Positions 1 through 17,397 of a stretch of DNA of 21,497 nt are shown here, piece by piece. The notes beneath the pieces are model-generated. The model saw only the letters and a list, made by a program, of their open reading frames with translations. It made no database searches and had not been told where the DNA came from. The position numbers and the translations under genes are program-made. Position 1 is the stretch's first letter, and the number at the start of each line of letters is the position of its first letter. The DNA comes from a virus (taxonomy: Duplodnaviria; Heunggongvirae; Uroviricota; Caudoviricetes), in IMG/VR virus record IMGVR_UViG_3300033068_000287, positions 1-21,497 of that record, one strand, 5' to 3'.

Positions 1-186
1 AAAGGAAACTATTCCAATATTATGGATTTTTCCCATCCTGAAAGAAATTCAGCAGAAATGGTTGCTAAACAAATGGAAATTCTTAGTGATGACATTTTTC
101 AAATTAAAACTGCTTTAGATATGGTAAGTTTTGAACTTAATGCTCTACTAAAAAGTCCCACCGTTAACAATACTGTTGGCACTTAA
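1..186 (+). CDS. 3' end of a probable convergently transcribed gene (partial, hypothetical, helical C-terminus)
   Basis: Frame +1 is open from base 1 to TAA at 184-186 (KGNYSNIMDFSHPERNSAEMVAKQMEILSDDIFQIKTALDMVSFELNALLKSPTVNNTVGT*). All three minus frames over 1-147 contain stops. It overlaps the end of the 456-aa gene by 39 nt and is not in the supplied ORF track. Confidence 0.5.
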   Translation, partial: KGNYSNIMDFSHPERNSAEMVAKQMEILSDDIFQIKTALDMVSFELNALLKSPTVNNTVGT

Positions 187-1518
187 ATAGTCAGTACCTT
201 CTACAGCGGCAACAAAACTGCTTCCTGATTTCTTAAAAATCGCTCCGTTCGTTTCTGCGGACAAATCTGCACCAGTACCACCATAAGCAAGGCCAATAGC
301 AGTACCATTCCAAGTACCAGTAACAATGGTACCTAGAGTGGTAATTGTGTTTTGTCCTGCGTATGTTGACGCAATATCAATTGTAGGATTTCCTGTACCA
401 CCATTACCATCAGTTACAGTTACTCTATTTGCTGTTCCTGTAATTGTTCTGGCAGCAAATGTATTAGCAGTAGTTCTAACGACTAAACCATTAGTTGCTA
501 GATCATGTAATGCTCTTGCTTGTCCAGTCAATTCTAACGTTCTGTTAGATGTTAAATCTCCACCACCAGTAATACCATTTTGTGTTGTAATAACTCTATT
601 GCTTGGTGTTGCGTCTGTAATACCATATCCAGAAAGTGTTGTTGGATTTGAACCGGCAGTAATTCTACCGTAAACGTCAACTGTAACAGATTTATATGTT
701 GATGCAGAAATGCCTGTTGTTGCAAGATCAATAGAATCCGTACCAACTACGATACGGCTTGATGATGCAGTTACAACGTTAATGGTATTTCCTGATCTTG
801 TTAGGCCGTCACCAGCTTCCAATGAACCAGCACCAGAAAATTGTGTGAATGTTAGTGCTGTTGTTCCTAGAGTGATAGGATCATTAGTAGACAACACGAA
901 TCCTTGGTCATGATGATCTGTTCCTTCTGTAACGAAAGTAAACATACCGCCAGTAACTTTTGCGCTTGTATTCGCGTCTGCTGATCTTGTCATTGCAGAA
1001 CCAGAACCATTAAAAACGTAAATACCGTTTTGTGATGCTGTTGTTTGTGCTTTTAATAGAACTCTATCACCAGAAGTCAAAGTAATACCGTCAATTGCTG
1101 AAGGAGCAGAAGCAATATTAATATTAGTAGCATCAGGAGAAGCAACTCTAACCGATTCTTTAATATCTAGGCCTTGAATGTTTGCGTCAACATATGCTTT
1201 ATTAGCAGCATCGTTAGGGCCAACAGGGTCGGCAACACCAGAAATAATAATATTATCAAAATCTACAGAACCAGAGAAAACAATATCACCAGAAAATTCT
1301 TTATTGCCTGTAACAGTTTGTGTTCCTGTAAGATTTAGAAATGCTCCAGGTCCTGCAATAGGAATAATTGTAGTAGCTGAACCACCAGAACCGCCTGTTC
1401 CTTGGCCGTAATACAATGTATTGTCAACTTCGTTATAAGCTAACTCCGCATTTTCTAATGATGATGGTGCTCCAGGAGAACCAGCGGTACGTCTTTTGAT
1501 ACGAATAGTATTAGCCAT
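148..1518 (-). CDS. tail/virion fibre protein, 456 aa, with Mtd_N-like N-terminal domain and fibre repeats
   Basis: N-terminus MANTIRIKRR...ELAYNEVDNTLYYG is Mtd_N-like. It has a DAANKAYVD junction, a KESVRVA...IDGITLTSGDRVLLKAQTTASQNGIY fibre domain and a P2-H/lambda-Stf-like repeat (TYKSVTVDVYGRITAGSNPTTLSGYGITDA). It is Thr/Gly-rich and ends NGGTF. Confidence 0.85.
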   Translation of the reverse strand: MANTIRIKRRTAGSPGAPSSLENAELAYNEVDNTLYYGQGTGGSGGSATTIIPIAGPGAFLNLTGTQTVTGNKEFSGDIVFSGSVDFDNIIISGVADPVGPNDAANKAYVDANIQGLDIKESVRVASPDATNINIASAPSAIDGITLTSGDRVLLKAQTTASQNGIYVFNGSGSAMTRSADANTSAKVTGGMFTFVTEGTDHHDQGFVLSTNDPITLGTTALTFTQFSGAGSLEAGDGLTRSGNTINVVTASSSRIVVGTDSIDLATTGISASTYKSVTVDVYGRITAGSNPTTLSGYGITDATPSNRVITTQNGITGGGDLTSNRTLELTGQARALHDLATNGLVVRTTANTFAARTITGTANRVTVTDGNGGTGNPTIDIASTYAGQNTITTLGTIVTGTWNGTAIGLAYGGTGADLSAETNGAIFKKSGSSFVAAVEGTDYLSANSIVNGGTF

Positions 1519-1520
1519 TT

Positions 1521-1793
1521 TTAAAAGTTTCCTCCGTCAACCAATTCCTCGTCCGGAGTGTTGACCCATTTTGATATTGTTGAGTTATAAGTTAATATAT
1601 CTTTATTATTTAGAGTTCCGAACAAAATATCCGAAAATTCTGATAAATTTTCTACTCCAGGAAAGCCTCTAGGACCTCTAGGACCAGCAATAGATACGTT
1701 TACAATCTTGTTGCCAATCTTTTTGATTACAACTTTATTGCTAGGCGCGTTAGTAAAGTCACCTCTAATGTCGATTTGGGTTTCATCAACCAT
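1521..1793 (-). CDS. small fibre adaptor, 90 aa, with mini-collagen and foldon-like hairpin
   Basis: Contains IAGPRGPRGFPG, then LSEFSDI...KDILTYNSTISKWVN (trimer hairpin-type repeat), and ends DGGNF. It abuts both neighbours with 2-nt gaps. Confidence 0.7.
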   Translation of the reverse strand: MVDETQIDIRGDFTNAPSNKVVIKKIGNKIVNVSIAGPRGPRGFPGVENLSEFSDILFGTLNNKDILTYNSTISKWVNTPDEELVDGGNF

Positions 1794-1795
1794 GT

Positions 1796-2161
1796 TTATA
1801 CAGTAACCTCCGGTGATACATAAATTTCTCCTTCTATAAGTCTATAGACAGTTCCATCAAATGTATCTGTTAATTCTAAATCGTACAGGTATTTTCCTGG
1901 TGGTAGTAATTGTGTTTCTTCTGCTGATAGTCTTAGCATCAATTCATTATTTGAATCGATTGTAATCTTACCATTATCTGTAGATAGTTCAGCAACTAAA
2001 GGACCACCAAAGTTCTTTCTGATTTGCATTTTCGCTTCATAGAAAGAAATATCAATAATAGCACCAACAGAATCTTCCCAAATGAATGGGAATTCAAATG
2101 TTGCTCCCTGTTCTATTGACTGGGCTTGTTGATTATCAAAATTTAAATGTGCTGCTGTCAT
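1796..2161 (-). CDS. collar/adaptor beta-sandwich protein, paralogue A (T5 p132/LtfC- or BppU-N-like), 121 aa
   Basis: Motifs IEQGATF, AKMQIRK, ELSTDNGKI, YLYDLEL, RLIEG and VSPEVT match a widespread phage fibre-anchoring beta-sandwich family (recognised from motifs, not searched). Confidence 0.7.
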   Translation of the reverse strand: MTAAHLNFDNQQAQSIEQGATFEFPFIWEDSVGAIIDISFYEAKMQIRKNFGGPLVAELSTDNGKITIDSNNELMLRLSAEETQLLPPGKYLYDLELTDTFDGTVYRLIEGEIYVSPEVTV

Positions 2162-2302
2162 TATATACTATTTATAAAGTAATTTCTGGAGAAACACGGA
2201 ATTGTCCTTCTAACAATCTAACAACTTTATCGCCATTAATTTCATATACTTCCAAGTCATAAACGTATTTTCCTGGTGGTAATAATTGTGTTTCTTCTGC
2301 TG
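1889..2302. repeat. 38-nt near-exact direct repeat (1889-1926 and 2265-2302) inside the two 121-aa paralogues
   Basis: gtattttcctggtggta(g/a)taattgtgtttcttctgctg, one mismatch, encoding AEETQLLPPGKY. Confidence 0.9.
2169..2176 (-). promoter_or_regulatory. T4-type late promoter TATAAATA
   Basis: Exact T4 gp55 consensus on the minus strand. It overlaps the stop of 2172..2537 and lies 7 nt upstream of the ATG at 2161. Confidence 0.7.
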
Positions 2303-2537
2303 TTAGTGCTAGATTGATTCTATTATCAGAATCAAAATAAATTTTGCCGTTGTCTGTAGATAATTCTGTAATTAGATCACCGCTAAAGTTTTTTCTAACT
2401 TGCATCTTTGCCGTATAATCTGACATTTCAATATCAGTTCCGTTAGAGTTTCTCCACGAAAATGTAAATCTCCATGTTGCGCCTTGTTCGATGTGTCCAA
2501 CTTGCTCGTTATCAAAATTTAAATGTGCTGCTGTCAT
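2172..2537 (-). CDS. collar/adaptor beta-sandwich protein, paralogue B, 121 aa
   Basis: Aligns without gaps to 1796..2161, about 75/121 identical by manual count. An AAGGAAC Shine-Dalgarno-like sequence lies upstream. Confidence 0.7.
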   Translation of the reverse strand: MTAAHLNFDNEQVGHIEQGATWRFTFSWRNSNGTDIEMSDYTAKMQVRKNFSGDLITELSTDNGKIYFDSDNRINLALTAEETQLLPPGKYVYDLEVYEINGDKVVRLLEGQFRVSPEITL

Positions 2538-2549: not shown

Positions 2550-3179
2550 TTATGCGCTTGTGTAGAAAGACATTTTTGCGTTTAGTAATGTATCTTTAAT
2601 TGTTTTACCTAGTGTTCCGTTTGTATTATACGATGCTAACGGCGAATTTAGTAGTTCACCAATAGTAAATGATGGTAATGGTGGAGTATAATCAGCAAAG
2701 GCTAATCTTGATGAAACTGGAACGTCAATTCTGCTTAGTTCTGTTGTCAATTCTGCCCTAACAGCTTGTGCAATATCTGAAGGAGTAGCACCACCGCCAC
2801 CTCCACCACTAGTAGATACTGTAATAGCTTGAACAGGTTGAGAAAAATTGATTCTTACGATATAGTTTCCGATAGTATTGATAAAAGGATCACCACCACC
2901 TGATACAAGCAAAATACCATCATTTACACGCAATGTATGATTTGATTCTTGCGGTCTGATTCTCCAACCATTTTGCAGAAATGCATAGATAGGAATATAA
3001 GTTCCTTCACTGGTATCAATAGCTTCACCACCAACGTTAGTTAAAGCTACAGCGTATTTACTGTTATCGCTTTCTACAAACCAGTCAACCCAACGGGACC
3101 ACAATTCTCTTACTGAAAGAACTGTGGTTCCTGATCCCAATGTAATAATTTTTGTTGGTCCGTCAAAGCTAATAGCCAT
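2550..3179 (-). CDS. hypothetical virion protein, 209 aa
   Basis: Intact ORF with upstream AGGA. N-terminal domain MAISFDGPTKIITL...VRELWSRWVDW...NGWRIRPQE, then a Gly linker and a helical tail (ELSRIDVPVSSRLA). Confidence 0.7.
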   Translation of the reverse strand: MAISFDGPTKIITLGSGTTVLSVRELWSRWVDWFVESDNSKYAVALTNVGGEAIDTSEGTYIPIYAFLQNGWRIRPQESNHTLRVNDGILLVSGGGDPFINTIGNYIVRINFSQPVQAITVSTSGGGGGGATPSDIAQAVRAELTTELSRIDVPVSSRLAFADYTPPLPSFTIGELLNSPLASYNTNGTLGKTIKDTLLNAKMSFYTSA

Positions 3180-3194: not shown

Positions 3195-4814
3195 TTAAAC
3201 GTAGGCACGATCTTGCTCGGCAACCAATGAAATTGAAATACCTTTAGAACGGGTAATTGTACCAGTAGCAACTACTGGCTTTGCAGAACCTGGATTACCA
3301 GCTACAATTGTAATGTCTGCGTCTGTTCCTGGTGTTCTTGATCCTTGGTCGTTACCATCATAATCGAAAGTAAACGCAATTGTAGAACTTCCGATTGATC
3401 CTGTGATAGGATTTCCATCAGCATCTTCTACAGTGATAGCACCTGTTAATCCGTAATCACTTGAACCAGTTAAATCTGTGAAATACATTCTGTAGTAACC
3501 AGTACCACCAGAAACTAGAACAGCATTAGAGTTAATAACACCAGCAGCAGCGAAAGGATATGTTCTTGCTGTTCCTGTGTTATCATAGAATGTAACAGTG
3601 TTTAAATCGTCTGGTCTTAATCCTTCAATGATAACACCAGTACCACCAGCATTAGGATTTGTAGGACTATAGAATCCAGCATTTAGAATATCACCAACAA
3701 AGTTCAACAATAGACCAGCAGTTTTACCGTTAACTGTTCCACCAGTCGCATCAATATCAGCATCTTGTCTTAATAGATATTGAATTTTAGTATAAATTTG
3801 TGCAAGTGTAGCAGTTACCGGGGTTGATCTTTGTAGTGTGAAACTTTGGTTTGATACAGTGCTAGGGAATGTTCCCCCTGTAATTGTAACAGTTGTTGCT
3901 GTTGTAGACGCAACGTTATATGTTCCTTGGTTAGCACCTTCGTGAATAGTTAATGTACCACCGTTATAATCTGAAGTATCGATAGAACCATCAGCACTTG
4001 TTAAAGTAGTTCCTGAAGCTGAACATGCTCCATCAATACCAGAATGTGTACCAACGTCAATAACGATACCAAAGTTTCTATCTGTTGTGCTTTCGACCTC
4101 TTTAGAATAAGCACCATCAAAATATTTAACATTGATTTCTGTATAAGGTGAATCTGTAGCTACATCAGCATCGGCATCAGTAATTTTCAAATCGTCTGCG
4201 TTAGACAATAGCAAGTTAACGATATAAGCACCAGTACCAGTTTTACCAGTATCAGCTAGAACAGAATCGGCATATAGTTTACCTTCCTCACGAACGAATC
4301 CTTTGAAGAATGTTCTGTTATCGAAGCTGCCGTTTGTAGCATCACCAAAAACTTGAATACCTTCGTTAACTTCGTCATCAAACGTAAAGTCTACAGAAGA
4401 TGCTGTAGAAGTTAATTGGTAATACAATTGTGCGCCTGTATTAACTTCACCCAATGATACGATACCAACGTATTGTCTATTAAGAACACCGGCAGAAGAA
4501 TATTCAGACCATCCACCGTCTCTTAGCATTTGTCTAGTTGTATCGTCTGCTGGTTTCCAGCCAGAGAATGTTTGACCGTCTGTACCGAATTGAAACTGCC
4601 CAGAAAGAGCATCGATTGCGTACATAGGAAATTCGAATTTGTTGTATGTAGAAGTTGTCCACAAATCAACAAATTTAGAATACAGGGCCTGTAAGGTAAC
4701 ACCATCTTTAGCAACTAAGTTGCCAGCTTCAATAAGCGTGAATGTAGAAGTTGATGTATCGATTGTAATTTCGGTACCAACGTTTAGTTGGGATTTATTG
4801 GTAATTTTTGCCAT
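3195..4814 (-). CDS. hypothetical virion structural protein, 539 aa
   Basis: Long Thr/Gly/Asp-rich beta-type ORF with its own late promoter and SD. The N-terminal motif TLQALYSKFVDLW resembles the 209-aa protein. Ends EQDRAYV. Confidence 0.75.
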   Translation of the reverse strand: MAKITNKSQLNVGTEITIDTSTSTFTLIEAGNLVAKDGVTLQALYSKFVDLWTTSTYNKFEFPMYAIDALSGQFQFGTDGQTFSGWKPADDTTRQMLRDGGWSEYSSAGVLNRQYVGIVSLGEVNTGAQLYYQLTSTASSVDFTFDDEVNEGIQVFGDATNGSFDNRTFFKGFVREEGKLYADSVLADTGKTGTGAYIVNLLLSNADDLKITDADADVATDSPYTEINVKYFDGAYSKEVESTTDRNFGIVIDVGTHSGIDGACSASGTTLTSADGSIDTSDYNGGTLTIHEGANQGTYNVASTTATTVTITGGTFPSTVSNQSFTLQRSTPVTATLAQIYTKIQYLLRQDADIDATGGTVNGKTAGLLLNFVGDILNAGFYSPTNPNAGGTGVIIEGLRPDDLNTVTFYDNTGTARTYPFAAAGVINSNAVLVSGGTGYYRMYFTDLTGSSDYGLTGAITVEDADGNPITGSIGSSTIAFTFDYDGNDQGSRTPGTDADITIVAGNPGSAKPVVATGTITRSKGISISLVAEQDRAYV

Positions 4815-4848: not shown

Positions 4849-4856
4849 TATTTATA
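4849..4856 (-). promoter_or_regulatory. T4-type late promoter TATAAATA
   Basis: Exact consensus in the 57-nt intergenic gap upstream of the 539-aa gene. Confidence 0.8.
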
Positions 4857-4871: not shown

Positions 4872-7800
4872 CTATGTATAGTTTCTATCAGGAATTTGCA
4901 CGACTAAAGCAGAACTACCACTAGCATCAAGTGGTAACCCCCTGATATAAAATGGAACATACCCAGTCTTAAATACTCCTATATCAACAACTGGAATTTC
5001 ACCAGCGTCAAATTGCCATACATAAGATGATCCAGAATTAGCATCAACATTTAAATATTCTGTGCTTGTTCCCGGCTCTAGAATAACAATATCTGATCCA
5101 GAAACCATTCCTGTAATAGTCAATTCTGCCATATCTAATGGATATTGATAACCTCTAGACGTATTTGTGCTGGTTGTGTAGAATGTCACATCTTTAATTG
5201 GTTGTCCTGCGAATGCGGGGGAAGCAATTCTAAATTTTAATTTAAATCCTAATTCTGGATCAATACTTGTTTCATTTGCGAGATTGCCGAATTGAATTGT
5301 TCCAGATACAGTTGCAATATTTGCATTGTCCACAGTAATAGTATTGCCAGTAACATCAGTCACTTTTGCAAATGTTGCTATACCTGTACCAAAAACATAA
5401 TCACCAACGTTAACTCCAGTGGCATCTGTTACAGTAAATGTGCTGGCTCCGCTTGACCCAGAACCTCCGGCTCTTGGATATGAAAGATTTTTATATGAAC
5501 TCCAGCCGTTACCATCATTCAAATCAATGGAATAATATAAGTCATGTGATATGATGTTTCCGCCAGTCATAACAGGAGAGACAGGCAAAAATCCAGTATG
5601 TCCTATAACGTAATGTGGAAACTCATAAACCACAACATCAATTGCATCTTTTCCTTGTGCGATAGTTCCTGCCCCGGTAAAATACGCATTGCCTGTTTCT
5701 ACAGTTACTGCGTTTGCTGTTGCTACTGTAGGCTCGTTCATGAACCAAGTTATTCTACTTGATGTATCAACAAAAGACATTGTTCCAGAAGTACCTCCGG
5801 CATTTGGTACAACCATGCTGAACGTGTTAGTTGTAAGCGGTATAGTATTTCGTAATCCTAGAGGTAATGCAGCAAGGTCACTTGATGCTGTTACAAATAT
5901 AGGCAATCCTGCCGTACCGTATCTAAGATTATGGTCGTTAGATGTAACTGTCATTGTCGTGGACGACCTTGCCCAAGAATTCCCTGTTGGATTCGAAGTT
6001 AGGTCATACGAAAAATAGTCAATCATATGCGTACCATAGATATTTGTTTCGGCATTTAGTGACGGCGCTTGTGTAAACCCTTTAAATGTAGTCTGTCTGG
6101 CCTCGATATCTAATCTGTCTGTTCCTGTTGTATAGAACGGGTCCGATCTTATAGATTCAAATAGGAAATTTGATGGGTTGTTACTTGTAGACACAACAGT
6201 GCTTCTATTATGTGTTAAATAAATTCTTTGGAACTTATTATTTGCACCAGTTGTTGATGACCCTGTGACCAACATCCCTGTAGAACACGAATAATAACTT
6301 AATGTTCCTGAAGTTGCGCCGGCGTTTAAACAGGTAAATGTAAAGGTATTTGCTGTAGGAACAGAAGCTACTGATTTTCTTGTTGTTAGTACGATAGCAG
6401 CAACAGAATCACAAGTGTACACTACTAATGAATCCCCAACTTTTAATCCATGGTCATTATGTGTTACTGTTGCTGTTGTTGATGATCTTGTCCATGATAC
6501 GTTCTCTGCTCCTGGTCCTCCCAGTTCTAATGGGTCGGAAATTGTTCCTAAGTTTCTAAACTTAACATTGTAACATCCAGAGGCCCCAAGCTGAACAAGT
6601 CCTGTATATGCAGAAACCATTGGAATACCACCCAACGATAGTCCGTCAACTAAAATATTTGTAGAATAAGAATCGATAGTAAATAGGGATTGCGGAAATG
6701 TTGATGGTGTAGTTCCTGCCACACAATCAACGGCTGTCATATCTAGAAATGTTATATTATCACAACCGTTTGATGTTGATAGTCCGTTTCCTATAAGTGT
6801 ACAACTATCAAATTCAATATTAACACAGTCGGTCATCAAAATAGAAAAGTTTGTCGCGTGCCCTCTATTTGAACATGATCTGAATGTTGTGTTTTCAAAA
6901 GAAAAATCCCTACATCCCCTAATCCATGCGTTATTTAAAGAAGATGTTGCGTGGGCATTTTTAGAAAACACACTATTTGTTACAGTTCCTCCAGCTTGGC
7001 AATTGATAAAATCTAAACCAATTGACGGGTTGTAGTTACTGTGGCTGCCTATACACACCATATCCCACACAACAGCAGAACCACACTCATTAACATATAT
7101 TAATTCACTAGCACATGTGTCGGTAAGATTTACGGAATAAGGTTCTACAAAGTTACAGTTATATGTGAAACATGCTTTATCCATAATTACCGTACCACCA
7201 CCAGATGTTGTCATTCTTGGTCTGGTTGATGGTGTGGTATGAGGAATAACATTTATAGTTGGTGCGCCTGACGCGCTTTGTTGAAAAATAAGATTAGGTA
7301 TTCTAACATTACAGCCAGAAACTGGTAAATATCCGCCGGTACTATTTGTACCGTCATTTTGAAAAGTTACAACACCTGAAGTAGAAATCCAGCAAACTTT
7401 TCCTCTAACAGCTTCTGTTCCTACGTTAGCAAGTAAAGCTGTTTGTGATCCTGCATTTGGATACCATTCGTAAACTCCAGTTCCTACACCGGTTTCAACT
7501 TGAACTCCAGCTATATATTGTGCAGAGCCATTTGTAGGGATTTGATAAGTTCCTGAATTATTTCCTGTTGTTGTTCCCAGATCAAAAAAGTCTCCGTATG
7601 CTTTAAATGTATTCAATCTGTTAATCGTAAACACACCAGATGTCTGGGACACAACAATTTCCAACCATCCTGCGCGATCTGCTGCGGTCGCTGTTGCTGA
7701 TATTCCTGTTAATGCCCCTGCTGTATAGGCTACACTATTCCATTGTTTAATTTTAATAAACCCTGAAGCAGGCATGGCAGAACCAGGTGTTGTTGGTGCT

Positions 7801-8118: not shown

Positions 8119-8346
8119 TTATTCTTCGATAATTACTTCTGGTTCATTTTGTGGTTTTGAAATATGTTCAATAATTAATTCATTTATTTCTTCATTGATA
8201 GAAATTCCTCCACCATGAGTTATAGAATAATATTCGTCATCTGTTAAATTATATTCTCTATCATATTTTTCCGGAGAGACTTCTTTAGCAGTATCAATAG
8301 TAAAAAATACGCCTTCGAATAATTTAAATGTTTTATATGTTGTCAC
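8119..8346 (-). CDS. small acidic hypothetical protein, 75 aa (possible fibre assembly factor)
   Basis: Fills the gap between the mini-collagen and spike genes, with a 14-nt overlap upstream and a 1-nt gap downstream. Glu/Asp-rich. Confidence 0.6.
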   Translation of the reverse strand: MTTYKTFKLFEGVFFTIDTAKEVSPEKYDREYNLTDDEYYSITHGGGISINEEINELIIEHISKPQNEPEVIIEE

Positions 8347-8687: not shown

Positions 8688-10190
8688 TTAGAGTAGAACA
8701 CCACGAAGGTTATCACAGATTAATAGACCACTAGATGCTAGTTCTAATTTAATAGTACATTTAGATTTGTCTATTGTTGATCCTAATGTTAATTCATTAT
8801 CTGTGTATGATGTAAGGCTTGATGAAACTGTAGTTGTCCCGTCTGTAACTGACCATGTTGCATTAGCCACATTGTCAGTAGCTAGTGCAATCTTAGCAAA
8901 TGCTGTTAGATCAATAACACTAGACGTCCATGCAGCACCGGAAGAAGATGAAAATGATCCTCTATATACCCCTCTAGGAACATATCCAGAAGTGTCATCT
9001 TGGGTATTAGCGGAAGTACCAATACCTGTAGCACCACTAATAGTCCATGTTAGTTCGCCGCCGGTAGGAACTTTAGAAGTAAATGCTTCAAAATCTTCTA
9101 ATAAAATAGCAGTTATGTAGCCTTTTAGATTATCAATATATCCTGAATGAAATGATCCTGAAGGATTATATAGTCCTATGCTTAAATATGCATAAGATAA
9201 GTTATGACCATCACTTAGTGTTGGTGTTATAGTTAGTGTTTGTGGTGTTGTGGTGTTTGGTGTACTTGTTACTGATTGATATCCACCAGGCGTAAATAAA
9301 ATAAATTCAAAATATGCGCCGGGTTTGGCGGTGGCCTGCTCTATATCAATAGAAAAACTTGAAAATCTACTAAGATCAATATTAGCAATACCAATAGTAA
9401 ATGTTTTTGTTGCGGCAGAGCCTATTTCTCCGGCATATAATCCTTGTGTAGGGATTCCGCCTATGCCTGTTTTTGCGTAATACCCGTCGGCAGGATTGCT
9501 TACATTCCATGGCATATCAGCAGGAACAGTATTTCCGCTTGATAGTGCTGTGTTTTCAAAACTTTCTAATAATTCTTCTTTCCATACAAAACGGACACCA
9601 CCAGAAGCACCAGCACCACCGGCTCTAGCGTTACCAGCACCGCCACCACCACCACCAGGAACAGTACCATCAGTTCCCGCTGTTAAGTTTGCTCCACCTT
9701 TACCGCCTTTACCACCATTAGCTGCGCTACCACCATCACCACCAATATTTCCAGAAGGGGCCGCTCCATCACCACCGTTAGTATTAACGTCCCCACCAGA
9801 AGATGTACCACCAACACTTCCGTCTGTCCAAGGAACTATACTATCAGCAGTTCCCCCATTAGCAACAATAGATAAAACTGTTGTAGGATTACCATCGATA
9901 CCAGGTTGAGTTACAGGACTAGGAACACCGGCACCAACAGTAAAACTTATATTTGTTCCTGGTGTAGTAGGGTGCGCATTAAGTCTAGAGTAGCCACCAC
10001 CAGAACCACCAGAACGTCCACCAGAACCTGAAGTAGCACCTGTAGAACCAGAACCCCAAGCCTCAACTTGAACAGAATACACTCTATCAGGAACAATAAA
10101 TGATCCAGATGTTGTATATAAGAATCCGTTTTTTACTGGAAGCGCAGGAACACCACTGGTGAATAATACTGAAGGAAACCTATAATACAT
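8688..10190 (-). CDS. glycine-rich adhesin-like protein with two C-terminal beta-sandwich (CBM-like) repeats, 500 aa
   Basis: YTTSGSFIVPDRVYSVQVEAWGSG...GGGY...GGGGGGAG...GGAGASGGVRFVW glycine-rich domain, then two repeats that start LLE[SD]FE and end DNL[KR]G. Confidence 0.7.
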   Translation of the reverse strand: MYYRFPSVLFTSGVPALPVKNGFLYTTSGSFIVPDRVYSVQVEAWGSGSTGATSGSGGRSGGSGGGYSRLNAHPTTPGTNISFTVGAGVPSPVTQPGIDGNPTTVLSIVANGGTADSIVPWTDGSVGGTSSGGDVNTNGGDGAAPSGNIGGDGGSAANGGKGGKGGANLTAGTDGTVPGGGGGGAGNARAGGAGASGGVRFVWKEELLESFENTALSSGNTVPADMPWNVSNPADGYYAKTGIGGIPTQGLYAGEIGSAATKTFTIGIANIDLSRFSSFSIDIEQATAKPGAYFEFILFTPGGYQSVTSTPNTTTPQTLTITPTLSDGHNLSYAYLSIGLYNPSGSFHSGYIDNLKGYITAILLEDFEAFTSKVPTGGELTWTISGATGIGTSANTQDDTSGYVPRGVYRGSFSSSSGAAWTSSVIDLTAFAKIALATDNVANATWSVTDGTTTVSSSLTSYTDNELTLGSTIDKSKCTIKLELASSGLLICDNLRGVLL

Positions 10191-10193: not shown

Positions 10194-11375
10194 TTAGGCC
10201 TCTTGTGCTACGCCTACAACGTCCCATTTAGTATCTGTGGAGTTATAGATGCAAGAAATATATAAAGTTTTACTGATTGTTGTAGTTGTTTTAAGAGTAG
10301 TTCCCATGGCTCTAAAGTTAGCACCATATGTAATTGCTCTTGCTGTACCATTATCTTTGATACGAATAACTAACGCTTGTCCTTGTACAGGTGTTCCTGT
10401 TGGGTTAGCAATTGTAAGTGCTGCCGCCTGTGCAGTTAATGTATACAAATCTGTTGTATCAGAATTGATTGTTAATGTTGCTGTAGATGTTGCTGTAGCA
10501 ACTCTAGGGTTTACTCTTTTGTTTGTAAGAGTTTCTGTTCCTGTTGGAGTAACAAAATCTGTTCCTGCTGTAGCTGCTGTAAATGCAGAAGTTCCGTTGC
10601 CCTTTAGGACACCAGTTAATGTTGTCGCGCCTGTACCGCCTTGCGCTACTGTAACAGCAGCGTTTGATGTTAATACTGTAGCGTTAGCATTTGGAAATGT
10701 AAATGTTCTTGTTGATGTTGCTGGTCCTGATACTGTAAAGAATCCGTTATTTGTTCCGCCGTTAGCAGAAGGTAAAATACCAGATACAGCATTTGCTGAA
10801 GTTAATAGAATTGCTCCGAATCCTATAGCAGTACCAGAACGTCTCATTACGTTACCGTCTGCGCCAGCAATAATATCAGCAGGATCACCAGAGGAGTTAG
10901 CAGAACGACCAATAACAGACAATCCAGCAGAATCTCTTAGCTTTGCATCAGATACAACGTTATTAGCAATTGTTGTGGCATTTGATCCAGCAGAAGCTGT
11001 AACGTCACCAGTCAATTCGGAACGTTGAATGCCTGTAGAGCCAGAGAATTCTATACCACCAGAAACTGTAATTTGTTCTACTACGCCAGAACCACCAGAA
11101 TCGCGCCCTAATAATCTATCTGTAGTAATATCTTGAATTTTTGCTAGAGTAACAGCACTGTTTACGATTTTGTTTGTAGAAATAGAACCATCAGCAACTG
11201 AAGCCGCGATGGTAATTGTTGCGGTATTGCCAGCAGAAGTTACTGAAACCGTTGCGCCTGTACCAGAAATAAAATCTAAAGAATGGAAAGAACCAGCAGA
11301 TACAGTATCATCAAGTATTTCTACTTTAGATTGACCTGTACCAATCATATTTGCTGAAATTTTATCTAATGCCAT
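10194..11375 (-). CDS. tail/virion fibre protein, 393 aa
   Basis: MALDKISANMIG start. Shaft repeats SISTNKI/AVTLAKIQD..RLLGR, LTGDVTA and VTVAQGGTGA. C-terminal domain TLTINSD...ANPTGTPVQGQALVIRIKDNGTARAITY...IYNSTDTKWDVVGV. Confidence 0.8.
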   Translation of the reverse strand: MALDKISANMIGTGQSKVEILDDTVSAGSFHSLDFISGTGATVSVTSAGNTATITIAASVADGSISTNKIVNSAVTLAKIQDITTDRLLGRDSGGSGVVEQITVSGGIEFSGSTGIQRSELTGDVTASAGSNATTIANNVVSDAKLRDSAGLSVIGRSANSSGDPADIIAGADGNVMRRSGTAIGFGAILLTSANAVSGILPSANGGTNNGFFTVSGPATSTRTFTFPNANATVLTSNAAVTVAQGGTGATTLTGVLKGNGTSAFTAATAGTDFVTPTGTETLTNKRVNPRVATATSTATLTINSDTTDLYTLTAQAAALTIANPTGTPVQGQALVIRIKDNGTARAITYGANFRAMGTTLKTTTTISKTLYISCIYNSTDTKWDVVGVAQEA

Positions 11376-11390: not shown

Positions 11391-11398
11391 TATTTATG
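11391..11398 (-). promoter_or_regulatory. late promoter CATAAATA followed by RBS CCTTAGAGGA (11381-11390)
   Basis: Overlaps the stop codon of the LamG gene and lies 15 nt upstream of the ATG at 11375. Confidence 0.6.
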
Positions 11399-12116
11399 CT
11401 GCTGCATAATGTTCAGCAACTTGCGTTCCTGTTAGTGCGTAGTTATAGATAGCAACTTCATCAAGAGAGCCGGAACAGAATCTAGTAGATGCTGTTTCAC
11501 TCATGAAATATGTAGGGGAAGAACCACCGGAACCTCCTGCAACTTTTCCTGTTAATGTGTTATTTAATACACCATCAACATACGCATTAGCAACGCCAGA
11601 AGAACTATCAAATGTAACAACGTAATGATGCCACGCATTATCATCTAATCTAACAGTTGTAGGAATATCTACAGAAGTTCCTGTAATTGTGGTAATATTT
11701 CTGAACACCATAATACCGTCTTGGTTATGTGGTGCAGTATTACCAGACCACAATGTACACCAATAGTTTCTGTTAGCACCAGCACCTTTAGACAATACAG
11801 TTTTAAAAGTATTCGTAGCTGAAGGAGTTTTAATCCAAAATTCGATTGATAATGATGATAAATCATATGCGGAAGTATATGGTACAGTTCCGTATTGGTT
11901 TGTCCCGTTGAATACTACACACTTATCAACTATGCCTGTGGAATTTAATGTCGGAGAACCAACAAATGTTCCGTTTCTTGCCGCAATAATATCTGTTAAT
12001 GTTGTTCCAGAGGTTTCTTCTAGACGATAGTATCCTACAGGAGAATGTGATAAAATCAATTCTTCATAAGTTATTCTATTTCTTGTTGATGCAAATCCTA
12101 ATGGTATAGCAAACAT
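11394..12116 (-). CDS. LamG/concanavalin A-like lectin domain protein (Laminin_G_3-like), 240 aa
   Basis: PVGYYRLEETSG, VFNGTNQY, SIEFWIK, WHHYVVTFD...AYVDGV and GSLDEVAIYNYALT..QVAEHY are canonical LamG-like jellyroll motifs. Confidence 0.9.
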   Translation of the reverse strand: MFAIPLGFASTRNRITYEELILSHSPVGYYRLEETSGTTLTDIIAARNGTFVGSPTLNSTGIVDKCVVFNGTNQYGTVPYTSAYDLSSLSIEFWIKTPSATNTFKTVLSKGAGANRNYWCTLWSGNTAPHNQDGIMVFRNITTITGTSVDIPTTVRLDDNAWHHYVVTFDSSSGVANAYVDGVLNNTLTGKVAGGSGGSSPTYFMSETASTRFCSGSLDEVAIYNYALTGTQVAEHYAAA

Positions 12117-12119: not shown

Positions 12120-13754
12120 TTATAGCGGCTCCAAGTTACCTTCTAGGTCCCATTCATTTGTTCCTACTTTAATAAGAACAGCAGACGCATATTGTTTAGA
12201 AATTATCAAAGTTTCTGGCGTGTTAATCGTTACACCACCTGTTGCTGCAATAGTTAAAGGACCAGCAGCAAGATTTTTAATATAAATTTGTGTTCCTACA
12301 GGGAAAGCATGTGAAGAATTTAATGGCACAGTTAATGTATCATCAACTCTTACATATTTACCAGCGTCTGCTAGTACAAGACTGTATGGTCCTGTTTGTG
12401 TATTGATTGCTACTGGTGCTACAATTGCGCCTGTTGCTGTTACTGTTCCGTTTACAACTACGTTACCAGAAGTCCCGCCAGACAATAAGGTATTAACAGC
12501 AGTTGAAAAATCTGAAATTGTAGAAGCTGTTTGTGAACCTGTATGGTTTGCTCTATTTTTTAAATTAGAATCTGTATCATTAGCAGTAGCGCCTGTTGCA
12601 ATACCAGAAAGTTTTGTTTTTTCTGCGCTTGTCATGAACAGATGTAATGTACCTTCGCCAATACTATCAGAATCGCCTGGTATTTGATCTAAGCTAGGCG
12701 TATTGTATAGATTATTATAGTCCCCATCAAACAATGTAGGAGTATCTATTAGATCATTATACGATCCTGTATCTGCGACAGCAGCAAGGTCTGATACCTG
12801 TAGTAAATCCGGCAGGTCAGTTAGATCATTATACGATCCTGTAAAAGTATCAAACCATTCAGGATAACTTACAATTTGCCCGTATGGAATTTCACCAAGA
12901 ACCAATTCTCCAGAACTAACAGCAAAGTGAGGTGATAATACAATTTCTTGAACAATGCCGCTTGTGCCGCCACGACCCAATAATGTATTTGCTGCAACGT
13001 TTTGAATTTTTGCGTATGTAATTGATCCGTCAGATACAGAAACAATAGACAACTGTGTTGAAATTACTGTGATCTCAATCGGTTCATCTAAAGGCGCAGG
13101 AGCAGATAATGTAATAACTGAACCTAATAGCGTGTATGTTTCTTTTCTTTGATAAACCCCACCAATAAAAATGTCAGTATGATCTTTAGTTACAGGAATA
13201 ACAGGATCAAGATCATATGCTACTGTTGATCCATCACCGACATATGAGAATGTTGAAATTTCAGAAAATGTATTATCTTCATTTACCCAGTTTGTTCCGT
13301 CATATACAAGAATTTGGCCAGCAGACAAATTAGAATCTAATACAACGTCTGCGATATCATCAATATTTTCTACAGAACTTGTTGAACTAATAACCAGAAC
13401 GCCGTTAGAATCAGGTTCTACAGTAATATTTGGTCCAGCAGTAACATGAGTTTGAATAGTAGCAACAATATCAGGAACAATGGACATGTTTGTCCACAAT
13501 TCGTTAGGCAAATCGTACATCAAGACTTGTCTATCAGCTAAATCTGAAGTTGCTAATGCTACGTCTGCAATATCATCTAGATAATCAACACCGCCACCAA
13601 TTTCACCAATTTCAATGATGGATTCAACACCATCATTTTTTTTCATGAAAATCTTACCGTCACGGGTATTAACAGCCAATTCACCAAGACTTAATTGTCC
13701 TGTTGTTGGTGTGTGTGCAGCAGAGTTAGAATTTTTTAGGATAATTGTAGCCAT
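12120..13754 (-). CDS. mosaic tail/virion fibre protein, 544 aa, with Mtd_N-like N-terminus
   Basis: MATIILKNSN...LGELAVNTRDGKIFMK start. Two DDIADV...Q[VI]L.Y...W.N repeats, a GDGSTVAY...IFIGGVYQ domain, TGSYNDL repeats and a KNRANHTGSQ motif. C-terminal YSLVLADAGKY...AFPVGTQI...QYASAVLIKVGTNEWDLEGNL domain. Confidence 0.85.
   Translation of the reverse strand: MATIILKNSNSAAHTPTTGQLSLGELAVNTRDGKIFMKKNDGVESIIEIGEIGGGVDYLDDIADVALATSDLADRQVLMYDLPNELWTNMSIVPDIVATIQTHVTAGPNITVEPDSNGVLVISSTSSVENIDDIADVVLDSNLSAGQILVYDGTNWVNEDNTFSEISTFSYVGDGSTVAYDLDPVIPVTKDHTDIFIGGVYQRKETYTLLGSVITLSAPAPLDEPIEITVISTQLSIVSVSDGSITYAKIQNVAANTLLGRGGTSGIVQEIVLSPHFAVSSGELVLGEIPYGQIVSYPEWFDTFTGSYNDLTDLPDLLQVSDLAAVADTGSYNDLIDTPTLFDGDYNNLYNTPSLDQIPGDSDSIGEGTLHLFMTSAEKTKLSGIATGATANDTDSNLKNRANHTGSQTASTISDFSTAVNTLLSGGTSGNVVVNGTVTATGAIVAPVAINTQTGPYSLVLADAGKYVRVDDTLTVPLNSSHAFPVGTQIYIKNLAAGPLTIAATGGVTINTPETLIISKQYASAVLIKVGTNEWDLEGNLEPL
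12749..12843. repeat. 23-nt exact direct repeat (12749-12771 and 12821-12843) encoding TGSYNDL
   Basis: ttagatcattatacgatcctgta occurs twice, 72 nt apart and in frame. Confidence 0.9.
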
Positions 13755-13772: not shown

Positions 13773-14378
13773 CTAAACGTTAGGGAATGTAAGAGGAACT
13801 GTTTCTATAGTTGAAAATGATACACAATCAACGCTACCTGAAATGTATGCGGCCTGCGCTTGGTTGCCAACCGCTCCGGTGATTCTGATAACGTCACCAA
13901 CGTTTAAATTAGTAATATCAATGACAGGAAATACTGTTAGTGTGTCCCATGAACCTGTGTCTGCCCATGCATACTGAATATTATTTACATACACATAAAC
14001 ATACATAGAACGGTAAATTGGCGAGCCAGCTTTGGACAAACGACATTTGAATCTAACACCACCAACACGCGGAACAGATACTCTAGCAACTTGAACTTGA
14101 CCAGCACCTACACCATAAGCAGAACCTCCGGACGTAACATCATTAGTTCCGTTATATCCATACTGAACATTTTCGCCAGGAGACATAGCAATAGATGCCC
14201 CATAGAATTGATCTAGAGAAATTGAACCAGCGGTTGAAATTGTGTTTTTAGCATGTAGTGAAACGTAATTATTTGGTGCTCCGCGGTAATATTCGTCAAA
14301 CCCAATAGGATTTGTGCCACCGGTGAATTCAGTTTGAATGTTAGCTAGAGAAATAGGTCCACTATTTTGTAGTGTCAT
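13773..14378 (-). CDS. putative fibre-tip adhesin, 201 aa
   Basis: N-terminus MTLQNSGPISLANIQTEF...IGFDEYYRG is typical of small proteins encoded directly after S74-bearing fibres. Overlaps the upstream fibre gene by 17 nt. C-terminal half is beta-sandwich-like. Confidence 0.65.
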   Translation of the reverse strand: MTLQNSGPISLANIQTEFTGGTNPIGFDEYYRGAPNNYVSLHAKNTISTAGSISLDQFYGASIAMSPGENVQYGYNGTNDVTSGGSAYGVGAGQVQVARVSVPRVGGVRFKCRLSKAGSPIYRSMYVYVYVNNIQYAWADTGSWDTLTVFPVIDITNLNVGDVIRITGAVGNQAQAAYISGSVDCVSFSTIETVPLTFPNV

Positions 14379-15324
14379 TTATTTTTTTATCCAATTCTTT
14401 GATAGCTTCGATAAGTACAGCAACAATATTTCCATATGCTACTGATTTTAATCCATCATCATGGGTCAATACAACTTCAGGTAAAATCTTTTCAACATCT
14501 TGCGCAATAACACCGATCTCATTTGACTGCGTTCTTTTGCGAGTAAAGTGGACACCCTCTAATTTGCGTACTAATTCTAGTGCATTTTCAATAGGTTGAA
14601 TGTTCTCTTTTAGGGTTTTATCTGAATAAGCAGTAACGTTAGCTGAAGCTGTAAAATTACCAGCGGAATCAAATAAAAATCTATTTGTATCAGAAGCCCA
14701 GTTTGCGCCGTGTTGAATAGTAATGTTAGAAACACCAGCAGAAGTCCCTTCCAATAGGAAGAATGCTTGTACTGTTCCGTTATTTGAATATTCTTGCAAT
14801 GTCGCTTTATACAAAGAAATTTGTGCAGAAGCATTTGTTAAAACAGAACCAACTCTTACACGCTTTGTATATCCAGATGGCATTGTCGGTGCAGTTGCAG
14901 ATAATGAAAAAATAGCATCTACTAAAGTATTAGCAGCATTACTAATAATGTAGATATAGTACAATGTATTATTTGCTACTGATCCTGCATCTAGACCACC
15001 AACGTCTGTTCCTGCCACAAATGTAGCATTAATTCTCTTTGTAAATTCTGTACCAATAACAATACGGCTATTATCAGAGAATACAACTTCACCTGTATTT
15101 ACTGTGATATCTCTTGTTGCTGTTGCTCCTAATCGAAAAGGAACAACTTTATAAAATGCTTTTGCTAATCCAGTTGCAGAAAATGCATTTAGGTTTGATG
15201 TGATAGCTGCTTTTGTTTTATCAGCAGTCATAAGTTTATCAGTAGCAACACCAGCAGTAGCTTCATTTAATGTAGCAATAGCGGCATTATCTAACCCGTC
15301 AAACGTTACTCTTGTATCTGTCAT
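14362..15324 (-). CDS. tail fibre protein with C-terminal intramolecular chaperone (peptidase S74), 320 aa
   Basis: C-terminus AY-SDKTLKENIQPIENAL...IGVIAQDVEKILPEVV...VAYGNIVAVLIEAIKEL is an S74 autocleaving chaperone. N-terminal IATLNEATAG.ATDKLMTADKT is a gp12/gp34-type repeat. AAGGAA SD upstream. Confidence 0.9.
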   Translation of the reverse strand: MTDTRVTFDGLDNAAIATLNEATAGVATDKLMTADKTKAAITSNLNAFSATGLAKAFYKVVPFRLGATATRDITVNTGEVVFSDNSRIVIGTEFTKRINATFVAGTDVGGLDAGSVANNTLYYIYIISNAANTLVDAIFSLSATAPTMPSGYTKRVRVGSVLTNASAQISLYKATLQEYSNNGTVQAFFLLEGTSAGVSNITIQHGANWASDTNRFLFDSAGNFTASANVTAYSDKTLKENIQPIENALELVRKLEGVHFTRKRTQSNEIGVIAQDVEKILPEVVLTHDDGLKSVAYGNIVAVLIEAIKELDKKINDTTK

Positions 15325-15336
15325 AATTTATTCCTT

Positions 15337-16647
15337 TTAAATTTCCCAATCTGTCCAGCCGCGAGTTGATACGTTTACTGTACCACCGGCTGTAGCGGCT
15401 CTAATACCAATTTGTCCAGATGTATTTGTACTGCATAATACTGTCATACCTTGAGGGTAAGAACCGTTACCACCAACATTCATTGTAGCGTTAGTTAGTG
15501 AAACGGCAGTATCAGCTTCATTAACAAGGTCTGTAACCAAAATACCATAATCAGAAGATGCAGGACATGTAAAGATCAAACCAACTTCAGCTTCCACAAT
15601 AATACCTGTTGGAACTCTTAATGTTCTTGTATCTCTTGCTGTATTGTTCTGTGTTTGTGCAGATACAGTATTTTGTAGTGCTTTATATCTAAATTTATTT
15701 CCTGTTTGTACGAATTGCAAAATTCCACCAGAGAAACGAACAATAGAACCAATGCGTTTCTTTTTAGTATAATTTGCAGGCATTGTTGGTGCAGTAGCAG
15801 ACAATGAAAATAGAACATCAGAAATATTAGTATCTGTTCTATGAATAACAAAAACATGCCATGTGTTATCTGCGATTGATCCTGTATCTCTTGCGCCTTG
15901 GTTGCTTCCTACTGTCCATGCGGCATCTAACTGTTTAATGATATTTGAAATAGTCATTATTGTAGTTCCGTCATCAGAGACGCAAGAACCAGCAAGGATA
16001 TTAATATCATTAGTTGTATCGCCAGCATCATTAGACATTTTAAGTCCGTATAAAATTTTACCTCTAAGTGTCGTTGCAGGCACAGCACCAAAAATTGTAT
16101 TATATACAGTTGTATCTAGTTTAGCTGTATTGATAGCACCATTAGCAATTTTAGCTGTTGTAACAGAGTTATCTTGAATCTTTTGTAGCGTAACAGAGTT
16201 ATCAGCTAGTTTAGTATTCGTTACAGCAGCAGTACCAATTTTAGATTCTGTTACAGCAGCAGTACCAATTTTAGATTCTGTTACAGCAGAATTAGCTAGT
16301 TTGCTTGTTGTTACAGCGCCAGTTCCAATTTTAACTTCAGAAACTGAAGAATCGGCAGGCTCTACAGTGTCATACACTGAACCGTAAATAATTCCGAAGA
16401 ATGGGGTTCCTGTGTCTGGTGCTGTGGTGAATAGAATTTTATCGTTAGAACTACCAATAGTAAATGCAACTCCAGGCTCTTGAATAACCCCATTAAGAGA
16501 AATTAGAAGCTGGCTATCTGTTCCGATTGTAACAGTTGATCCAGAATTTCTTAAATTGAATTCTGTTAGTACACCGTTAAATTGTGATGAAATATCGTCA
16601 AGGCGTTTATAATCCCCGACAGCAGGTGAAGCACCGATATATGCCAT
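15337..16647 (-). CDS. tail fibre protein (MAYIG family), 436 aa, with decapeptide shaft repeats
   Basis: MAYIGASP...LDDISSQFNG...LLISLNGVIQEP...ILFTTAP N-terminal domain typical of T4-like cyanophage/pelagiphage fibres. Eight [SA][VI].{3}K[IL].{3} repeats at aa 101-180, then a C-terminal globular region. Confidence 0.85.
   Translation of the reverse strand: MAYIGASPAVGDYKRLDDISSQFNGVLTEFNLRNSGSTVTIGTDSQLLISLNGVIQEPGVAFTIGSSNDKILFTTAPDTGTPFFGIIYGSVYDTVEPADSSVSEVKIGTGAVTTSKLANSAVTESKIGTAAVTESKIGTAAVTNTKLADNSVTLQKIQDNSVTTAKIANGAINTAKLDTTVYNTIFGAVPATTLRGKILYGLKMSNDAGDTTNDINILAGSCVSDDGTTIMTISNIIKQLDAAWTVGSNQGARDTGSIADNTWHVFVIHRTDTNISDVLFSLSATAPTMPANYTKKKRIGSIVRFSGGILQFVQTGNKFRYKALQNTVSAQTQNNTARDTRTLRVPTGIIVEAEVGLIFTCPASSDYGILVTDLVNEADTAVSLTNATMNVGGNGSYPQGMTVLCSTNTSGQIGIRAATAGGTVNVSTRGWTDWEI
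16108..16347 (-). repeat. array of eight 30-nt/10-aa fibre-shaft repeats including an exact tandem duplication (16220-16289)
   Basis: gttacagcagcagtaccaattttagattct occurs twice, followed by a further 10 matching nt, encoding AVTESKIGTA AVTESKIGTA AVT. Confidence 0.95.
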
Positions 16648-16650
16648 TTA

Positions 16651-16983
16651 TTATGTGATCTCCAAAACAGACATTACAACGTCAACAGAAGTAGTCAAAG
16701 ATGAAACAGCAGCAATTTTATCTGCTGCCTCTAAAACAACTTTTTGATCTCCACCTACCACAACTAACGAACTGCCAGCAGGCAAAGGAGCGTCTTTAAT
16801 AAGATAAACAGTAGTAGCTGTAGATGTATCAATAAGTTTAACACTTACTGTAATAGTAGATACTGTTGTATTTGCTAAAGATAGTCCGATAACTGTAGAA
16901 GTTGTAGAAGCAGGAGTAACATAAATGTCCTGTTGTGCTGTTCCTAGGTTAGCGTAAACTTTATTTTTAAACGTGTTTGGCAT
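16651..16983 (-). CDS. conserved small beta-sandwich virion adaptor, 110 aa
   Basis: MPNTFKN...DIYVTPASTTSTVIGLSLANTT...LIKDAPLPAGSSLVVV...KVVLEAADKI...VDVVMSVLEIT, a family I recognise from environmental phages between an A[IF]A.AI.[LF]G-ending gene and a MAYIG gene. Confidence 0.75.
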   Translation of the reverse strand: MPNTFKNKVYANLGTAQQDIYVTPASTTSTVIGLSLANTTVSTITVSVKLIDTSTATTVYLIKDAPLPAGSSLVVVGGDQKVVLEAADKIAAVSSLTTSVDVVMSVLEIT

Positions 16984-16992
16984 AGTGCTGTA

Positions 16993-17397
16993 TTATCCTC
17001 CGAATACGATAGCAAACGCAATAATTTGATCTTCAACCGCGGCTGTTTTTGCGTCAACATATGCCTTTGTGGTTGCATGATTTGTTAGTGTAGGGGCAGA
17101 AGCTAATAGAATTGTAACGTTATCTATTGTTCCGCCAGAAATTTTATCACCAGAAATTTGGTCGTTTGCAAGAACTAAAGAAGCAGACGATAAAGTCATA
17201 GTGCTGTTAACTGTTAAGTTAGAAAATGTTCCTACTGCTGGTGTAGATTGTCCAATAGTTGTACCATTGATTGCTCCGCCAGTAATATTAATAGCATTAT
17301 ATTCTCCGATAGCATTCCATCTATCAATCATTGTATTACAACGTTGACGCATAATATTAAAATTATTGCTTAATGTAATTGTATCAATTGTTGCCAT
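16993..17397 (-). CDS. short fibre-connector protein, 134 aa
   Basis: N-terminal helical segment (NNFNIMRQRCNTMIDRWN), fibre motifs (ITGGAINGTTIG, HATTKAYVDA) and a hydrophobic C-terminus IIAFAIVFGG. Confidence 0.7.
   Translation of the reverse strand: MATIDTITLSNNFNIMRQRCNTMIDRWNAIGEYNAINITGGAINGTTIGQSTPAVGTFSNLTVNSTMTLSSASLVLANDQISGDKISGGTIDNVTILLASAPTLTNHATTKAYVDAKTAAVEDQIIAFAIVFGG

Follow-up and report, generated by a model that had tools for sequence, protein, structure and literature searches.

A stretch of 21,497 bases, referred to below as the window, opens a 122-kb virus contig in IMG/VR (IMGVR_UViG_3300033068_000287; CheckV completeness 68%) and carries an array of 18 minus-strand open reading frames (ORFs) between positions 148 and 17397, beside the gene for a VrlC-type baseplate protein. 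The array is the VrlC-proximal 17 kb of a host recognition cluster (HRC), a kind of locus that has been described before. We put at about 0.75 the probability that this part of the HRC, from an uncultured marine or aquatic T4-like myophage, is a mosaic of exchangeable cassettes which gives the phage several independent adhesins. The initial annotation of the window had set the array apart, as something new, from the fibres of T4 and from the branched arrays of Ackermannviridae and phiKp24-like phages; this novelty does not hold, since HRCs are known from marine T4-like phages (PMC7029224) and two of the modules occur in the cultured Pelagibacter phage Mosig. Its broader proposal of a multi-gene receptor-recognition module beside VrlC, with several fibre proteins and with lectin- and spike-like domains, is supported.

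The term host recognition cluster was introduced by Zaragoza-Solas et al. (2020) for a hypervariable island of 34-45 kb between VrlC and the neck gene gp14 of pelagi- and cyanomyophages. In most of these genomes tail fibres are encoded directly downstream of VrlC, which takes the place of T4 gp7 in a double-layered baseplate, and the structural proteins of the cluster carry concanavalin A, collagen, Mtd and YadA domains (PMC7029224). The array resembles such clusters in that it starts right after VrlC in a T4-like baseplate operon, encodes tail fibres (g05, g06 and g20), a Laminin_G_3 domain (g09), an mtd_2nd domain (g06) and collagen-like runs (g12 and g19), and is non-syntenic between relatives. 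Genes are numbered in order of transcription, with g03 to g20 forming the array (Table 1). All convincing genes between positions 148 and 21497 lie on the minus strand, and the gaps within the array range from -17 to +19 nucleotides (nt), the sole exception being the 57 nt before g15. The approximately 18 contiguous same-strand ORFs of the initial annotation were found again with the same positions, lengths and strand; they were said to lie directly downstream of the VrlC-like gene, and they do adjoin the gene for this protein of 1793 amino acids (aa), except that a 72-aa gene, g02, stands between. Because the contig ends at base 1, 147 nt beyond the end of g20, the cluster is cut off: the array is truncated at this point and may extend further.

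In order to follow the array in other genomes we compared 80 VrlC-relative loci from IMG/VR. These were distant relatives; the only IMG/VR contig with a VrlC of more than 50% identity (53%) ends just past that gene. An unbroken run of same-strand genes continues to the end of the fetched flank in 11 of the 21 loci with at least 9 kb of downstream sequence. Homologues of g02 were found directly after VrlC in 38 of the 80 loci, those of g04 in 24, of g05 in 15, of g17/g18 in seven (with g20 in five) and of g06 in four (with g07 in three); g08 and g10 gave one match each and the other genes from g08 to g16 none. Wherever g04 and the N-terminus of g05 both had homologues (15 loci), the g05 homologue was downstream of that of g04. 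The C-terminus of g06 and the N-terminus of g07 recur as a pair in L126 and L127. Homologues of g17/g18 and g20 are separated by an ORF of about 80 aa in the VrlC loci for which ORFs were listed, and such an ORF occupies the position of g19 in Mosig and in loci L100, L133, L155 and L156. A synteny comparison of this kind had been proposed with the initial annotation: sub-modules recur on their own and in varying order, but the array as a whole does not.

Two of these units can be recognised in Mosig, where Mosig_00070-69-68 is similar to g18-g19-g20 and Mosig_00066-65-64 to g03-g04-g05, the second correspondence being based on gene order, sizes and the C-terminal motifs IVFGG and LEI[ST], not on BLAST. 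The fibre protein of the first unit, g20, is 42% identical to Mosig_00068 (E 8e-32), matches 13 PHROGs, tail fibre among them (E 1e-49 to 1e-22), and has tblastn matches to annotated tail-fibre proteins, while nothing was found for it in a PDB sequence search. Homologues of g18 are present in 61 phage records, mostly of cyanomyoviruses and pelagiphages. The proteins g17 and g18 are 62% identical and are the product of a tandem duplication (1796-2537); in related phages a single copy stands before the gene of about 80 aa and a fibre gene of about 500-570 aa. When C-terminal endings were compared with those of Mosig (L177, 11535-14091), g03 and Mosig_00066 both ended in IVFGG and g04 and Mosig_00065 in LEI[TS]; g20 ends in NGGTF and Mosig_00068 in DGGSF, g19 in DGGNF and Mosig_00069 in NAGAF. 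Judging from their sequences, the conserved short C-terminal motifs could be docking or processing motifs.

The fibre modules nearest to VrlC are also related to one another and to the far end of the array. The small protein g03 resembles residues 41-118 of g20 (E 1e-7), and residues 147-303 of g05 resemble residues 1-162 of g06 (E 7e-22). g05 matches phrog_18673, 'tail fiber' (E 4e-25), and at its N-terminus the fibre gp28 of P-SCSP1u (PDB 8i4m, E 4.8e-8). g06 matches 36 tail-fibre PHROGs, the Pfam family mtd_2nd (E 1.3e-5) and a long tail fibre distal subunit (PDB 6f45, E 5.7e-5), and its residues 234-286 are a Peptidase_S74 domain (PF13884, E 1.6e-16, above the curated cut-off). S74 domains are normally cleaved off, leaving a free tip. 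Most likely the S74 fibre g06 sheds its own C-terminal chaperone, which gives no hint of a cap. The next protein, g07, had been called an SGPISL-type tip; its 201-aa sequence does have this N-terminus, but it matches no Pfam, PHROG or NCBIfam family and gave no tblastn match in the phage collection. NCBIfam contained nothing for ten of the array proteins. As for the five fibre shafts initially proposed, strong homology backs those of 436, 320 and 456 aa (g05, g06 and g20); it is weaker for the 544-aa protein (g08), through a C-terminal domain, and for the 393-aa protein (g10), through one PHROG and similarity to fibres.

The initial annotation had gone further and proposed that the array encodes one branched, daisy-chained apparatus, in which short fibre segments would be joined end to end and each branch capped by the adhesin from the next gene. 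Fibre-like genes do alternate with small or lectin-like genes, and the motifs GGxF, IVFGG and LEI[ST], conserved with Mosig, might serve to dock one segment on another. Furthermore, VrlC has matches in Ackermannviridae, phages in which branched receptor-binding protein (RBP) complexes exist beside VrlC homologues. Against this, other phages have the cassettes one at a time and in varying order, g06 ends in an S74 chaperone, g14-g15-g16 may not belong to the tail, and the interface between neighbouring products is a postulate. Neither Pfam nor PHROGs revealed a T4 gp10-like or other branching or adaptor domain in the array proteins, although remote homologues could be missed by these searches. 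Because the cassettes recur separately and in varied order, independent units are favoured over one chain, and we regard the single apparatus as quite improbable.

The baseplate genes place the mosaic in its T4-like setting. g01 matches DUF4815 (Pfam, E 2.6e-28) and phrog_358 (E 0), and is 38% identical to VrlC of Mosig; weaker matches were obtained to homologues from cyanophages, Ralstonia and Pseudomonas phages and Ackermannviridae, the VrlC-type proteins of the latter being 33-34% identical. The ORF comprises 1291 aa within the window, where it is cut by the window end, and 1793 aa on the contig (21498-23002 added). The genes upstream of VrlC on the same strand encode two baseplate wedge proteins, one of them gp6-like (phrog_219, E 1e-158), and a gp8-like protein. 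Judging from these sequences, the source phage is a T4-like myophage, marine or aquatic, with a VrlC nearest that of Mosig; it is deep-branching, since no more than one contig in IMG/VR exceeds 50% identity in VrlC. The gene psbA was not found on the contig. GC content at third codon positions (GC3) is 0.17-0.25 throughout the array, as low as in VrlC, with the short genes g02, g13 and g19 as exceptions. Because GC3 is uniformly low and equal to that of VrlC, base composition indicates that the cassettes are long resident and not recent imports; we had considered recent foreign acquisition of single cassettes and rejected it in view of this uniformity.

In the middle of the array fibre-like genes are followed by lectin-like or glycine-rich ones. 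g08 matches phrog_8780, 'minor tail protein' (E 1.3e-10), and its residues 451-542 match proteins of Gordonia phages, PhiJL001 and other phages by tblastn. It resembles g10 (E 1e-9), which in turn resembles g20 (E 2e-10) and g05. The LamG lectin that had been noted in g09 was confirmed by Pfam; relatives of g09 are limited to distant LamG proteins of about 31% identity in uninformative neighbourhoods. The 500-aa g11, directly after the fibre-like g10, had been described as a Gly-rich adhesin with repeats like those of carbohydrate-binding modules (CBMs). Its Gly_rich_2 region is clear, but the repeats are a lead only: the two C-terminal units have boundary motifs in common and a likeness to CBM_4_9, while BLAST between them is not significant (E 0.36). 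From their sequences these units may be carbohydrate-binding. With its Gly_rich_2 region and its place behind g10, g11 is a candidate to be compared with adhesins of the T-even gp38 type, which have a polyglycine-type receptor-binding domain on a fibre tip and are encoded next to the fibre gene. g11 also has a weak match to phrog_863 (E 4e-7); we obtained no tblastn match for it in the phage collection, no IMG/VR relative by pattern search and only noise in a PDB sequence search. The doubtful gene g13 matches no family and lacks homologues in the horn-type cassette loci described below.

Genes directly after fibre genes often encode chaperones, as do those for T4 gp38/gp57 and Tfa. Among the small or unassigned ORFs, several (g07, g09, g13, g16 and g17/g18) could be non-structural, serving as assembly chaperones or host-surface modifiers and not as adhesin tips, in which case the number of specificities would be nearer three to five than nine. 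The label is 'L-shaped tail fiber protein assembly' for phrog_3304, which g17 and g18 match, and 'tail fiber assembly' for phrog_863, which g11 matches; g07 and g13 are without structural homologues. However, residues 37-119 of g18 match a PDB chain named 'Structural protein' (26dk_M, a 2026 entry; E 5e-6) and in Mosig the homologue of g18 carries a tail fibre annotation; the LamG and CBM-like folds belong to binding modules, not to chaperones; and the homologues of g16 have variable C-terminal extensions, as in distal binding proteins. We therefore hold this alternative to be a sizeable possibility, though the less probable one. PDB entry 26dk_M may show the place of a g18-type protein in the virion.

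The largest gene of the array, g14, belongs with g15 and g16 to a cassette for which neither Pfam nor PHROGs gave a match. A tblastn search with g15 identified gene 53 of phage Syn5 and a 39.6-kb uncultured phage, MW202577, which has all three genes adjacent. Over its full length g15 is similar to the Syn5 horn protein gp53 (BLASTP E 8.5e-35), and g16 is 39% identical to gp55 (BLASTP E 5.6e-21). Pairwise BLAST of g14 with gp54 gave a weak match confined to the C-terminus, but a hidden Markov model of residues 960-1081, built from 39 g14 relatives, matched residues 513-618 of gp54 (E 3e-14). The three genes, adjacent and co-oriented, are thus homologous to those of gp54, gp53 and gp55 respectively. 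In a census of 110 g15 relatives in IMG/VR, from which 80 loci were kept for their g15 homologue, 75 of the 80 had a g14-type gene upstream and 64 had one of g16 type downstream. The trio, present in most of these contigs, is mobile. Across relatives, g14-type proteins are constant in no more than their last ~85 residues, and g16 homologues vary in length from 72 to 468 aa. The contigs that carry the cassette range from less than 40 kb to more than 200 kb and have mixed neighbours, such as portal, protease, capsid and helicase genes. A DUF4815/VrlC gene was also found on three of ten large cassette-bearing contigs, and on the present contig, as on at least two more with a VrlC gene (216 kb and 172 kb), the cassette is next to the baseplate/VrlC genes. 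One further cassette is on a 596,785-base record classed as viral (L030, IMGVR_UViG_3300020045_008999), whose size fits a cellular fragment or a megaphage.

The beta-helix spike tip assigned to g14 by the initial annotation was borne out by structure prediction. The AlphaFold2 monomer model (pLDDT 81.7, pTM 0.80) is a right-handed parallel beta-helix over residues ~1-800, which in a VIA search matched TSP3 and TSP2 of CBA120, phi29 gp12, AlgE4 and alginate epimerases and lyases (Z 20-21, root-mean-square deviation 3.0-3.5 Å over about 290-360 aligned residues) and in Foldseek matched tailspikes with a probability of 0.99-1.0. A PDB sequence search showed no similarity of g14 to any solved tailspike. 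The beta-helix alignments start at model residues 1-9, where an N-terminal particle-binding domain would have been expected. The g15 model (pLDDT 90.9, pTM 0.84) has PDB matches at the level of domains only, to a small barrel (255-333) and a CnaB/transthyretin-like sandwich (421-538), with Z 7-9; its fold matches an uncharacterised AFDB cluster (A0A350IDJ9, TM 0.76). ESM Atlas feature searches with g14 and g15 returned only sub-threshold, unnamed clusters. Both proteins end in Q/E-x-DR-[NA]-Y-x (g14, 4872-4886; g15, 3195-3209), an ending kept across both families; a profile-profile comparison of their C-termini with hhalign was not significant (E 0.06). Complex prediction for g15 and residues 960-1081 of g14 gave no answer (score 0.00) and is not evidence either way.

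The unusual horn of Syn5 is made up of gp53 and gp54 (Raytcheva et al. 2014, J Virol 88:2047), and for gp55 a place in a capsid knob has been suggested tentatively (Gipson et al. 2014, PMC4102127). The products of g14-g15-g16 might form a Syn5-type horn or other capsid appendage rather than a tail organelle, which would place about one third of the 17 kb outside the adsorption apparatus. All three genes have their homologues in Syn5, the BFVD models matched by that of g15 include one of a Syn5 structural protein which, at 622 aa, is as long as gp54, and some of the contexts elsewhere adjoin portal, protease and capsid genes. Nevertheless, Syn5 is the only phage in which the horn proteins have been located, the cassette neighbours baseplate and VrlC genes in this contig as in the 216-kb and 172-kb ones, and the tailspike-like beta-helix of g14 is a fold typical of receptor-binding depolymerases. 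A capsid appendage is, in our view, unlikely, if well short of negligible. Slightly more doubtful still, and proposed here tentatively, is a positive role for the cassette as an integral, long-resident part of a T4-like HRC: g14 would be mounted in reverse polarity, by its C-terminal domain, on a base of g15 and g16, forming a host-recognition organelle that binds or cuts glycans. If this were true, the Syn5 horn would belong with receptor-binding appendages that are exchangeable and widespread, and its function could be tested in many phages. A horn-type cassette with a tailspike-like subunit beside baseplate genes links the unexplained horn of Syn5 to the receptor-binding machinery.

Returning to the mosaic of exchangeable cassettes, we propose that the genes, packed in the manner of a late structural operon after those for the gp6-like, wedge, gp8-like and VrlC proteins, would each contribute to one of a series of units of two or three genes, a fibre or spike with its accessory proteins. 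These would be g03-g04-g05 (small proteins and a fibre), g06-g07 (S74 fibre and accessory protein), g08-g09 (fibre and LamG lectin-fold protein), g10-g11 (fibre and glycine-rich protein), g12, possibly with g13 (collagen-like), g14-g15-g16 (Syn5 horn type) and g17/g18-g19-g20 (conserved fibre module). By analogy with related phages, several different RBPs could find docking sites on the VrlC-type arm of a double-layered baseplate. The products would be present in the virion, the fibres presumably as trimers, and their putative attachment sites and ligand classes would differ, so that several independent adhesins of different classes would be displayed and surface glycans recognised through multiple receptors or in steps. 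Recombination would add, remove and reshuffle cassettes.

A number of points weigh against this proposal. The structural role of the array products is predicted from genes alone. For the g08-g09 and g10-g11 pairs no other locus was found, and these pairings follow from adjacency only. g07, g13 and g16 are without a functional homologue and g11 has one at the level of domains only, and some of the small genes may be assembly chaperones. The gp13/gp14 boundary of an HRC would lie off the contig. Lastly, the horn proteins of Syn5 reportedly occupy the capsid vertex that faces away from the tail, and infection is said not to have been blocked by antibodies against them; by analogy, such data on the homologues of g14 and g15 would argue against a receptor-binding role of the cassette. 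Host range in marine T4-like phages, which are abundant, is set by the HRC, and one more gene-by-gene map adds little alone. The small recurring cassettes, some of them present in the cultured Mosig, nevertheless provide concrete units for host-range prediction and experiments.

Table 1 Genes of the array, its VrlC-proximal neighbours and putative late-promoter sites in the window.
Feature	Position	Strand	Length (aa)	Description
g01	17621..21497 in window, on to contig position 23002	-	1793 (full)	VrlC-type baseplate arm protein; DUF4815, phrog_358
g02	17399..17617	-	72	Charged helical protein; phrog_473 'virion structural protein' E 1.3e-14; Mosig_00099 homologue E 5e-6
g03	16993..17397	-	134	Small protein ending IVFGG; first gene of g03-g04-g05 module
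g04	16651..16983	-	110	Protein preceding g05-type fibre; phrog_26609 E 3.6e-14
g05	15337..16647	-	436	Tail-fibre protein; conserved N-terminal anchor, 11-residue-repeat shaft, distal domain common to g06
g06	14362..15324	-	320	Tail fibre with C-terminal intramolecular chaperone
g07	13773..14378	-	201	SGPISL N-terminus, 17-nt overlap with g06 stop; accessory or tip, fold unassigned
g08	12120..13754	-	544	Fibre-like protein; C-terminal 90-aa domain common to minor tail proteins
g09	11394..12116	-	240	LamG/ConA-like lectin-fold protein; Pfam Laminin_G_3 E 2.1e-22, full domain
g10	10194..11375	-	393	Thr/Ala/Gly-rich fibre-like protein; phrog_3030 (function unassigned) E 7.6e-24
g11	8688..10190	-	500	N-terminal Gly_rich_2 (Pfam E 4.6e-10); two ~150-aa C-terminal units
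g12	8333..8668	-	111	Collagen-like protein with 8 GXY in residues 23-46; PHROG matches (collagen, tail fibre) weak
g13	8119..8346	-	75	Acidic ORF, GTG start, doubtful gene; ORF call only
g14	4872..8117	-	1081	Tailspike-like right-handed beta-helix protein; Syn5 gp54-type C-terminal ~85-aa domain
g15	3195..4814	-	539	Globular multi-domain beta protein, Syn5 horn protein gp53 homologue
g16	2550..3179	-	209	Syn5 gp55 homologue; N-terminal ~120 aa conserved, C-terminus variable
g17	2172..2537	-	121	Tandem paralogue of g18; phrog_1084 E 4e-25
g18	1796..2161	-	121	First gene of g18-g19-g20 module; phrog_1084 E 2e-25; Mosig_00070 E 8e-15
g19	1521..1793	-	90	Collagen-like (GXY run) linker protein ending DGGNF
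g20	148..1518	-	456	Tail-fibre protein ending NGGTF, last before contig end
TATAAATA	4849..4856	-		T4 late-promoter consensus; only sizeable intergenic gap, upstream of g15
TATAAATA, second copy	2169-2176	-		Upstream of g18, overlapping g17 stop codon

The T4 late-promoter consensus TATAAATA has two exact sites in the window, both on the coding strand and just upstream of gene starts. This count is not above chance, and only the intergenic position and coding strand are suggestive. Scans for sigma70 promoters and terminators gave background levels.

Among known systems, the Ackermannviridae, with TSP1-4 of CBA120, share with the array a VrlC-type protein beside a multi-gene receptor-binding cluster. 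The products here are mostly fibres rather than tailspikes, and branching would be hypothetical for them. The horn genes of Syn5 have adjacent and co-oriented homologues here, those of gp54, gp53 and gp55. The order is 54-, 53-, 55-like here and 53, 54, 55 in Syn5; of the 1081 residues of g14 only the last ~110 match gp54; and the cassette is part of a T4-like myovirus HRC, whereas in Syn5 the genes lie near the terminase of a T7-like genome. Tailspike depolymerases (CBA120 TSP2 and TSP3, phi29 gp12, HK620 and Det7) superpose on residues ~1-800 of g14 over about 290-380 residues, with Z 18-21. In contrast to these proteins, the helix of g14 begins at about residue 9 without an N-terminal particle-binding domain, and the conserved, presumably anchoring part is C-terminal.

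With respect to the HRCs on record, the present one differs in containing the Syn5 horn-type cassette, which is in no cultured Kyanoviridae record of the phage collection. In Mosig a large island of glycan-synthesis and auxiliary metabolic genes comes behind the genes next to VrlC, and the fibre modules are at the far end, whereas here 17 kb of unbroken fibre, spike and lectin genes follow VrlC without a glycosyltransferase. Both phages nevertheless have in common the g03-g04-g05 and g18-g19-g20 modules and the small gene after VrlC.

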